A stretch of 4,571 nt of DNA from a virus (taxonomy: Duplodnaviria; Heunggongvirae; Uroviricota; Caudoviricetes): IMG/VR virus record IMGVR_UViG_2531839233_000005, positions 1-4,571 of that record, one strand, 5' to 3'. Within the stretch, counting starts at the first letter, position 1; the number at the start of each line of letters is the position of its first letter. Shown one piece after another: positions 45 to 3,714 of this stretch. The notes under the pieces were generated by a model that saw nothing but the letters and a program-made list of their open reading frames with translations, was not told where the DNA came from and made no database searches. A program made the position numbers and the translations under genes.

Positions 45-123
45 TGAGAAATCCTCTGCTTCCCCTTAACGCCGGGTAGCGGAACTGTTTGCTGAGAACA
101 CCGTGCGGTGTCTTGATGAGTAG

Positions 124-176
124 AATTTAGAATAGCCTAAGAGTTATGGTCAAGCTTTTTGTGTAGAAAAACCTAA
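124..176 (-). promoter_or_regulatory. PL-like leftward promoter with two operator-like palindromes (OL-like)
   Basis: Minus-strand -35 TTGACC (reverse complement of 148-153), 18-nt spacer, -10 TAAATT (reverse complement of 124-129). TTAG-aatagc-CTAA at 127-140 overlaps the -10 and spacer; gTAG-aaaaac-CTAA at 163-176 lies just upstream of the -35. Both share the motif found in the 661-727 operator cluster. Confidence 0.4.
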
Positions 177-659: not shown

Positions 660-667
660 ATTAGGTA

Positions 668-696
668 ATTCTAATTTTTCTTGACTTAGGTTTCTC
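668..696 (-). promoter_or_regulatory. PRM-like promoter for the repressor gene, probably giving a leaderless or near-leaderless mRNA
   Basis: Minus-strand -10 TAGAAT (reverse complement of 668-673) ends 8 nt before the A of the repressor ATG (659). Weak -35 (GAGAAA, reverse complement of 691-696) at 17-nt spacing. The -10 is overlapped by the operator site at 661-674. No SD for the repressor. Confidence 0.35.
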
Positions 697-709
697 TACG
701 ATCTAGTTT
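681..709 (+). promoter_or_regulatory. PR-like rightward early promoter
   Basis: -35 TTGACT at 681-686, 17-nt spacer, -10 TAGTTT at 704-709 (TA...T conserved). Overlapped by operator sites at 686-699 and 710-727. Drives the Cro-like gene, whose RBS AAGGG (724-728) sits 7 nt before the ATG at 736. Confidence 0.4.
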
Positions 710-735
710 CCTTAGGAAAATCTAAGGGTTTCGAT

Positions 736-2997: not shown

Positions 2998-3714
2998 ATG
3001 GAAACCGTATTTGACGCACTGAAAGCACTGAAAAAAGCCTCTTCACAGGTAGTGGCATCGCGCCTTGGAATTAGTCGTGAAGAGGCTGTCAACGAACTGT
3101 GGAAACTGAAACGCCGTGGAGAAGCGGATAACAAGGGGGCGATATGGTGGCTGACTCAGGCTGGTGAAAGTGAACCGGTGTCACCGGTACCGAAAGTGAC
3201 GGCGCAAATGCTGACAGAGGCGATTGAACAACATGGCCCACAAACGGCGGATGAACTGGCATTGATGTTCGGAATTACCTCCCGCCGGGCGAATTCATCG
3301 CTGGCAATGGCAATCAGCAAAGGGTGTCTGATTCGCGTGAATCAGGATGGTAAATTTCGTTACTGCATACCGGGCGTTGATTTACCGGCAGAGCCGAAAG
3401 CAGCATCCGTAGCTGAAACGGAGGGTAAAGCCCTTCCTCAGCCAGCTGGTGTTGCGTTACCAGTCCAGGAAACGGCTGCACAGGAAGAAATTAAAACAGA
3501 AGCGGTGGAGGACATTGTGAAGTTGCAGCAATCGTTCACTGAAGCGAAAGCAGATGACCTGATTCTACCATCGCTGCATGTGGCTAACCGCGAGCTGCGC
3601 CGGGCGAAAAGTAATGTTCAGAAGTGGGAGCGAGTCTGTGCTGCGCTACGGGAACTGAACAAACACAGGGATATTCTCCGGGATATTACCGCCACCAGAG
3701 AGCAGCAGCGGTGA
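2998..3714 (+). CDS. Hypothetical protein, 238 aa: two predicted winged-helix-like segments, acidic/Pro-Ala linker, charged helical C-terminus
   Basis: ATG at 2998 with SD GGAGGA (2985-2990) at 7-nt spacing; the TTG at 2980 is rejected. Residues about 1-55 and 70-125 look like wHTH units ([19 protein letters not shown]; [29 protein letters not shown]). Stop TGA 3712-3714 overlaps the next start. Confidence 0.75.

Follow-up and report, generated by a model that had tools for sequence, protein, structure and literature searches.

The intergenic spacer at positions 660-735 of the window (the whole stretch of 4,571 nt that was analysed) is very probably the right-hand operator region of a DicA/DicC immunity switch that shares common ancestry with the immC region of phage P22 and the dicA-dicC region of Qin (K-12). 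As in immC, three 18-bp palindromes are interleaved with the predicted PR and PRM counterparts, here between a repressor gene, dicA, and the divergent cro-type gene dicC; two further sites of the same kind lie beyond the 3' end of dicA, in and next to a leftward promoter (Table 1). The switch is a new allele of a known kind, which has been described since 1986-88 and was extended in 2012 and 2023.

Table 1. Genes, operator sites, promoter elements and terminator-like hairpin of the immunity region (window coordinates)
Feature	Positions	Strand	Sequence	Remarks
dicA-type immunity repressor gene, 135 aa	252-659	-		ORF, Pfam, identity to K-12 DicA
dicC, Cro-type regulator gene, 75 aa	736-963	+		Pfam P22_Cro, identity to K-12 DicC
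Site 1 (Qin Oa, P22 OR3)	661-674		TTAGGTAATTCTAA	exact; centre 667.5, +8.5 from dicA ATG
Site 2 (Qin Om, P22 OR2)	686-699		TTAGGTTTCTCTAC	7 of 8 arm bases, CTAC; centre 692.5, +33.5
Site 3 (Qin Oc, P22 OR1)	710-727		CCTTAGGAAAATCTAAGG	14-bp core 712-725, TTAGGAAAATCTAA, exact; centre 718.5, +59.5
dicC promoter -35 (PR analogue)	681-686	+	TTGACT	same hexamer, same place in most relatives
dicC promoter -10, predicted	704-709	+	TAGTTT	17 nt past the -35; aligns with K-12 TATCTT
dicA maintenance promoter -10 (PRM-like), predicted	668-673	-	TAGAAT	sequence reading; position equals that of the annotated P22 PRM -10
Leftward operator 1 (OL1 analogue)	127-140		TTAGAATAGCCTAA	exact; between -35 and -10 of the leftward promoter
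Leftward operator 2 (OL2 analogue)	163-176		GTAGAAAAACCTAA	one mismatch; 36 bp from OL1
Leftward early promoter (dicBp/PL analogue)	124-153	-	TTGACC-18-TAAATT	promoter scan; TTGACC at 148-153
Hairpin with a U-run behind it, past the dicA stop codon	188-223	-		inverted repeat; fold -10.3 kcal/mol, z=-3.5

In the repressor, an N-terminal HTH domain similar to that of P22 c2 is joined by a linker to a short C-terminal region predicted to be helical. As originally predicted, this is a short XRE repressor without an S24 domain: HTH_3 alone was found by Pfam in the 135 residues (at 12-64, with the HTH families confined to residues 6-72), and no S24 peptidase domain was detected. The predicted DicA type is borne out by 63% identity to Qin DicA over 131 of the 135 residues, including the C-terminal EMRARVxNFNKLFEELLKAR, and by the divergent neighbour, DicC, which shares 83% identity with K-12 DicC and matches both the P22_Cro family (E=3e-13, 49.7 bits against a cut-off of 30.2) and P22 Cro itself (1rzs, E=6e-7). 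Residues 2-69 of the repressor align in the same numbering with the N-terminal domain of P22 c2 (E=1e-21), and the homology ends at residue 69. In the recognition helix, Val33, Ser36, Gln37, and Trp38 are shared with P22 c2, whereas Asn32 is replaced with His and Ala34 with Thr. A single-sequence AF2 model of the repressor, of low confidence (mean pLDDT 58), gives a faint indication of C-terminal helices beyond a linker. The AU-rich hairpin of 12 bp that follows the dicA stop codon is probably the dicA terminator.

Exact matches to TTAG-N6-CTAA occur at only three positions in the window, namely, in sites 1 and 3 and in leftward operator 1, against 0.07 expected, and none of 200 shuffles of the window yielded three of them. 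When up to one mismatch is allowed, just two positions are added across the 4.6-kb window, those of site 2 and of leftward operator 2. The set of three palindromes that had been predicted between the two genes is therefore real, with the qualification that the motif is exact in the outer two, the middle one carrying one mismatch (CTAC); the two leftward operators had been overlooked. The centre-to-centre spacing, predicted at 25-26 bp, was measured as 25 bp between sites 1 and 2 and 26 bp between sites 2 and 3. Site 3 is the best palindrome of the set and abuts the dicC Shine-Dalgarno sequence. All five sites, site 2 included, obey a symmetric inner rule, TTAGR-N4-YCTAA; with up to one mismatch, this refined motif has five matches in the window against 0.32 expected, all five in the two regulatory regions. 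In related prophage DNA (16-20 kb), exact TTAG-N6-CTAA is found solely at three positions of the immunity region.

The spacer is AT-rich, with only about 29-35% GC, a composition that could favour the view that the sites are chance palindromes of intergenic DNA; therefore, positions 660-735 were also shuffled separately, with dinucleotide composition preserved (n=20,000). On average, a local shuffle contained 0.0075 exact sites and 0.11 sites with one mismatch; two exact or three one-mismatch sites were not reached in any of the 20,000. A chance origin also runs against the retention of the site positions across genera. Taken together, the shuffles, the invariance of the arms, and the conservation across lineages effectively refute this explanation.

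Conservation was assessed over 19 loci in species-representative genomes, 80 loci in viral contigs, 8 contexts in which the repressor is identical to that of the window, and a number of phage records. Among 65 loci of the immunity type of the window, 15 distinct spacer haplotypes were distinguished, in which none of the 24 columns in the operator arms but 13 of the 52 other columns vary (one-sided Fisher p=0.004, a value that is supportive rather than strict because the haplotypes are related). At a greater distance, 13 representative lineages from Escherichia species, Citrobacter, Symbiopectobacterium, and Rahnella carry a recognition helix of the form HV[TS][IV]SQW. In these, the cores of Oa and Oc deviate from the motif at no more than one position and lie at fixed distances, with the site 1 core at +8.5 or +9.5 throughout, and the 6-bp centres vary freely. 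In lineages with other helices (SISLWES, SVFKWE, TIFKWE), the TTAG-N6-CTAA motif was not found. Site 2 follows a different course: it has a single mismatch only in the clade of the window and 2-3 mismatches elsewhere, where the right arm is lost. Within that clade, a 69%-identical relative retains a site 2 with one mismatch, at a different base (TTAGGAATCTTTAA).

The base immediately inside TTAG varies together with the recognition helix. Purines occupy this position in 57 of the 60 half-sites associated with HVTISQW, and pyrimidines do so in all 30 half-sites of the Qin class, HVSVSQW, counts that, like those of the haplotypes, are not independent. This covariation points to distinct immunity specificities built on a common core. 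The outer flanking base, C here and G in Qin, was considered as a specificity determinant and rejected because relatives in E. ruysiae and E. albertii have G with the same helix.

The -35 hexamer of the dicC promoter, TTGACT, occurs at the matching place in most of the homologous spacers, K-12 Qin included, and in P22, with TTGACC in one lineage. The -10 hexamer is weak, with three of the six consensus bases. Alignment with the K-12 -10, with the -11 A in register, predicts a dicC transcript start at about position 716. On the opposite strand, the dicA transcript would start 2-4 nt before the AUG, at about 661-662, and thus be nearly leaderless; on reading the sequence, no Shine-Dalgarno motif is present ahead of the dicA ATG. 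The dicC and dicA promoters were missed by a consensus promoter scan, which called only the leftward promoter and a single site within dicA; the dicC -10 and the dicA promoter were placed by homology only. With this placement, site 1 holds the PRM-like -10, site 2 overlaps the last base of the dicC -35 and the promoter spacer, and site 3 spans the aligned dicC start. By alignment, then, the overlap originally proposed agrees with the sites at both ends of the region: sites 2 and 3 cover the PR-like -35 and start, and site 1 the PRM-like -10.

Some spacer variants of the same immunity type have altered dicC promoter hexamers, either TGGTTT in place of the -10 TAGTTT, with loss of the -11 A, or TTGGCT in place of the -35 TTGACT. 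The operator arms are intact in these variants. The alterations may mean that, in cryptic copies, the lytic promoter is decaying or has been damped.

The leftward operators resemble their counterparts in relatives and in P22 in both place and spacing. The TTGACC hexamer of the leftward promoter, which lies between the two operators, is also found in K-12 dicBp and P22 PL, and leftward operator 1 is collinear with P22 OL1. The leftward transcript is predicted to start at about position 117. A counterpart of this operator lies 79-121 bp past the dicA stop codon in all relatives, and the paired leftward sites are 35-36 bp apart in most lineages, compared with 35 bp between OL1 and OL2 of P22. The leftward leader (positions 60-120, minus strand) and the K-12 dicBp-ydfA leader are near-identical, although the repressors share just 63% identity, and the mosaic boundary with other relatives is at about position 60. 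The leader contains a hairpin, ACACCGTGCGGTGT (98-111); as a whole, it folds no better than shuffled sequences (z=-0.24). In modules of the Qin type, this promoter leads to the ydfA..dicF/dicB operon; the dicB gene falls beyond the window and was seen in 8 of the 8 fuller contexts of the identical repressor. In some of these contexts (at 11684-12547), a 284-aa Phage_pRha/ASH protein is encoded in the leftward operon just before dicB, and is a second candidate for an antirepressor-type regulator besides Rem.

The function of the sites can be approached through Qin, where Oc (TTGTTAGTCATAACTAACAA) is bound by DicA in vivo and loses this binding when its CTAA arm is changed to CTCA (PMC3441716). 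Qin DicA bound to Oc represses dicC and stimulates dicA, and the K-12 dicC start mapped by 5'RACE falls in Oc (PMC3441716). The annotated position of Oc relative to dicCp is -8 to +12, and plasmid-borne Oc titrates DicA (bioRxiv 10.1101/2025.05.13.653802). Om and Oa, the naming of which is attributed to a 1988 paper in Mol Gen Genet, are operators predicted in Qin from the sequence, and neither bound DicA alone in vivo, a result given there as data not shown (PMC3441716). Sites 1 and 2 of the window may therefore be weak or dependent on cooperativity.

The failure of K-12 Om to bind DicA (PMC3441716) raises the alternative that sites 1 and 3 alone work as operators, giving a two-operator switch. 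Site 2 would then play no part in repression and be a TTAG that happens to follow TTGACT, combined with a chance CTAC. The loss of the right arm in most lineages, with 2-3 mismatches, agrees with this alternative, and about 0.11 one-mismatch sites are expected by chance in the 76-nt spacer. However, both arms of site 2 are invariant in the 15 haplotypes while the flanking columns vary, and the 69%-identical relative keeps a one-mismatch site although the mismatch is another one. Furthermore, site 2 lies exactly at the position of P22 OR2, a member of a proven operator family, and fits the inner R/Y rule. On balance, we consider a switch with only two operators unlikely and retain site 2 as a member of a three-site set.

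Another possibility, that the palindromes are mainly sites of DicC (Cro) or promoter elements and that DicA acts elsewhere, is highly improbable. It would fit the coincidence of site 1 with a -10-like hexamer, the normal use of the same operators by Cro-type proteins, and the differences in DicC sequence between immunity types. It does not fit the binding of K-12 DicA to the homologous Oc, which depends on the CTAA arm (PMC3441716), nor the 57%-type similarity of the DicA HTH to that of P22 c2, a reader of TTAAG-N4-CTTAA, nor the covariation of the operator variant with the DicA recognition helix.

With DicA as the principal ligand of the sites, a mechanism can be proposed in which a DicA dimer would read the 18-bp sequence nnTTAGR-N4-YCTAAnn via the c2-like HTH. 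Site 3 would be the strongest, primary operator, where DicA would block the dicC promoter at its start point and stimulate the weak dicA promoter as in Qin, and site 2 would be an auxiliary operator on the dicC -35 and spacer. Site 1 coincides with the predicted -10 and start point of dicA, whose transcript would be nearly leaderless, so that this site would serve in negative autoregulation of dicA and as a target of DicC. The leftward sites would shut the promoter that drives the dicB operon in relatives. The switch would be flipped by the small antirepressor Rem, or by a stochastic or stress-driven takeover by DicC, and not by RecA-stimulated autocleavage. We infer DicA binding in this phage, the hierarchy of the sites, the dicA start, and cooperativity; physical binding of DicA is known for K-12 Oc alone (PMC3441716).

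A more elaborate combination, comprising cooperative binding at three sites via the C-terminal region, bridging of the right and left operators over about 540 bp, and heteroimmunity with Qin through a single base class, is doubtful as a whole. If it held, the inner purine and the inner pyrimidine would be read by Thr34/Ile35 and by Ser34/Val35, respectively. Because the middle site is near consensus in the clade of the window, cooperative binding without a classical oligomerisation/cleavage domain might persist there.

As was argued at the outset, induction cannot run through autocleavage because the repressor lacks an S24/LexA-like peptidase domain, as judged from its sequence: no S24 match was obtained in place of the C-terminal S24 domain, Ser/Lys dyad, and Ala-Gly linker site that characterise cleavage of the P22/lambda type. 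The antirepressor route suggested instead has a published counterpart. DicA and DicC form a bistable switch, DicA has no cleavage site, and Rem is the DicA antirepressor (PMC10448788). A search of the fuller relatives for an antirepressor detected rem in 9 of 9, namely, PPompW and the 8 contexts that carry the identical repressor. In these, rem stands beside hok, at a distance of 5.4-7.6 kb on the side of dicC; inside the 4.6-kb window, no antirepressor gene was found. Rem was identified by BLASTP against K-12 Rem and precomputed PF27490 matches; PPompW Rem is 72% identical to K-12 Rem.

An exact LexA box (CTGT-N8-ACAG) near rem was not found in the relatives examined. LexA control of rem through such a box was rejected: the sole exact CTGT-N8-ACAG of these prophages is inside the replication gene, away from rem. 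The rem gene has a promoter-like sequence of its own, TTGAAG-N17-TAGAAT, after the hok terminator (PPompW 12368-12400; K-12 about 3480-3510). Within the spacer of this promoter lies the palindrome TTCCGG-N6-CCGGAA, with one mismatch in the K-12 copy and none in that of PPompW; it could be the operator of a regulator of Rem.

Downstream of dicC, Pfam identifies genes for a YdaT/CII-like protein, a DnaT-domain O-like protein, a lambda-P-like protein, a DUF1627 protein, and a DUF4406 protein. The O-like replication gene (1470-2510) contains a cluster of direct repeats at 1756-1952, with units of the ACACCCAAAAACGG type at 1756, 1845, and 1911, CAAAGACACCCAAA at 1887 and 1909, and two copies of GGAACCCAAA at 1933-1952; at these repeats, the GC skew changes direction locally. 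The repeats look like origin iterons located within the initiator gene, as in lambda and P22. Beside these putative iterons, at 1801-1816, lies the perfect CTGT-N8-ACAG mentioned above (CTGTTAATAAAAACAG), which resembles a LexA box, is kept in all relatives checked, and may be there by chance or be related to the origin. The P-like ORF (2299-2964, 221 aa) and the O-like gene share about 210 nt, and relatives annotate products of 140-153 aa, so the true start is probably internal. An Rfam scan of the whole window gave no match.

The PPompW prophages of Stx-producing E. coli align with 3.1 kb of the window at 96.5% identity. The immunity cassette (100-760) is present in 751 of 5,426 complete E. 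coli genomes, including PPompW-type Shiga-toxin strains, and because it is so common, the operator map and the predicted determinant of heteroimmunity are useful for annotation. Both also help to predict cross-talk among co-resident DicA-type prophages and Rem antirepressors. The understanding of how such switches work is unchanged by the finding.

One of the closest known systems is that of Qin. Both have a 135-aa, two-part repressor, a divergent DicC, and a TTGACT -35 between the sites, and the operator centres are at +9.5, +34.5, and +59.5 from the dicA ATG in Qin compared with +8.5, +33.5, and +59.5 in the window. In both, an operator lies inside a leftward TTGACC promoter, the leader is nearly identical, and rem stands beside hok, in the case of the window in its relatives. 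The differences concern the recognition helix (VAHVTISQW in the window, ISHVSVSQW in Qin) and the inner operator base, a purine in the window (TTAGR-N4-YCTAA) and a pyrimidine in Qin (TTAGYCATGRCTAA), which suggests heteroimmunity. In addition, the middle site is near consensus in the window and degenerate in Qin, and the module of the window is adjacent to intact O/P-type replication genes, whereas that of Qin resides in a decayed prophage.

In the annotated genome of the Salmonella phage P22, the centres of OR3, OR2, and OR1 are at +9.5, +34.5, and +57.5 from the c2 ATG, the PR -35 TTGACT lies between OR3 and OR2, the 5' end of the RM transcript is 4 nt before the c2 ATG, and OL1 and OL2 are located around a TTGACC -35. 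P22 and the window share a homologous Cro, 18-bp operators with a 4-bp centre, the same -35 hexamers, and a nearly leaderless maintenance transcript. Given the collinear spacing and the common -35 hexamers, the sites are positional homologues of the P22 operators, beyond analogy to lambda. The lambda-style OR1-3 analogue of the original prediction thus stands as to switch geometry but not as a new analogue, the relationship being one of homology to the known P22/Qin system. The c2 consensus, ATTTAAG-ATAT-CTTAAAT, is read through Val33 and Gln37 (PMC5175364). The half-site is TTAAG in P22 and TTAGR in the window, where the repressor has His in place of Asn32, and on this comparison repressor residues may be tentatively assigned to operator bases. 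P22 c2 is a 216-aa protein that has a LexA-like cleavage/oligomerisation domain and is subject to RecA-dependent induction, in contrast to the 135-aa repressor of the window without such a domain, and P22 has three OL sites, compared with two recognisable in the window.

With regard to induction, the Gifsy phages of Salmonella are similar to the window. DicA has been listed in the group of uncleaved Gifsy repressors, GfoR/GtgR (PMC3121763). The repressors of Gifsy-1, -2, and -3 (GfoR, GtgR, and GfhR) are, like that of the window, short (about 136 aa) and are not cleaved at induction. The Gifsy antirepressors GfoA, GftA, and GfhA, like Rem, are small and encoded outside the immunity region, and they inactivate the repressors; they are LexA-controlled, whereas no exact LexA box was found near rem in the relatives examined.

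Lambda shares with the window the arrangement of three operators between divergent repressor and cro genes, with the distal site on PR and the proximal one on the maintenance promoter, and shares with switches of the Qin/window type a leaderless repressor mRNA and a bistable output. The operators and the Cro fold of lambda are unrelated to those of the window, and the window system would not involve RecA cleavage. The lambda operator centres, which we take to be at -19, -42, and -66 from the repressor start, compare with -8.5, -33.5, and -59.5 in the window, the sites of which would accordingly be about 10 bp closer to the repressor start. Finally, activation has been reported from the distal operator, Oc, in Qin, in contrast to OR2 in lambda.
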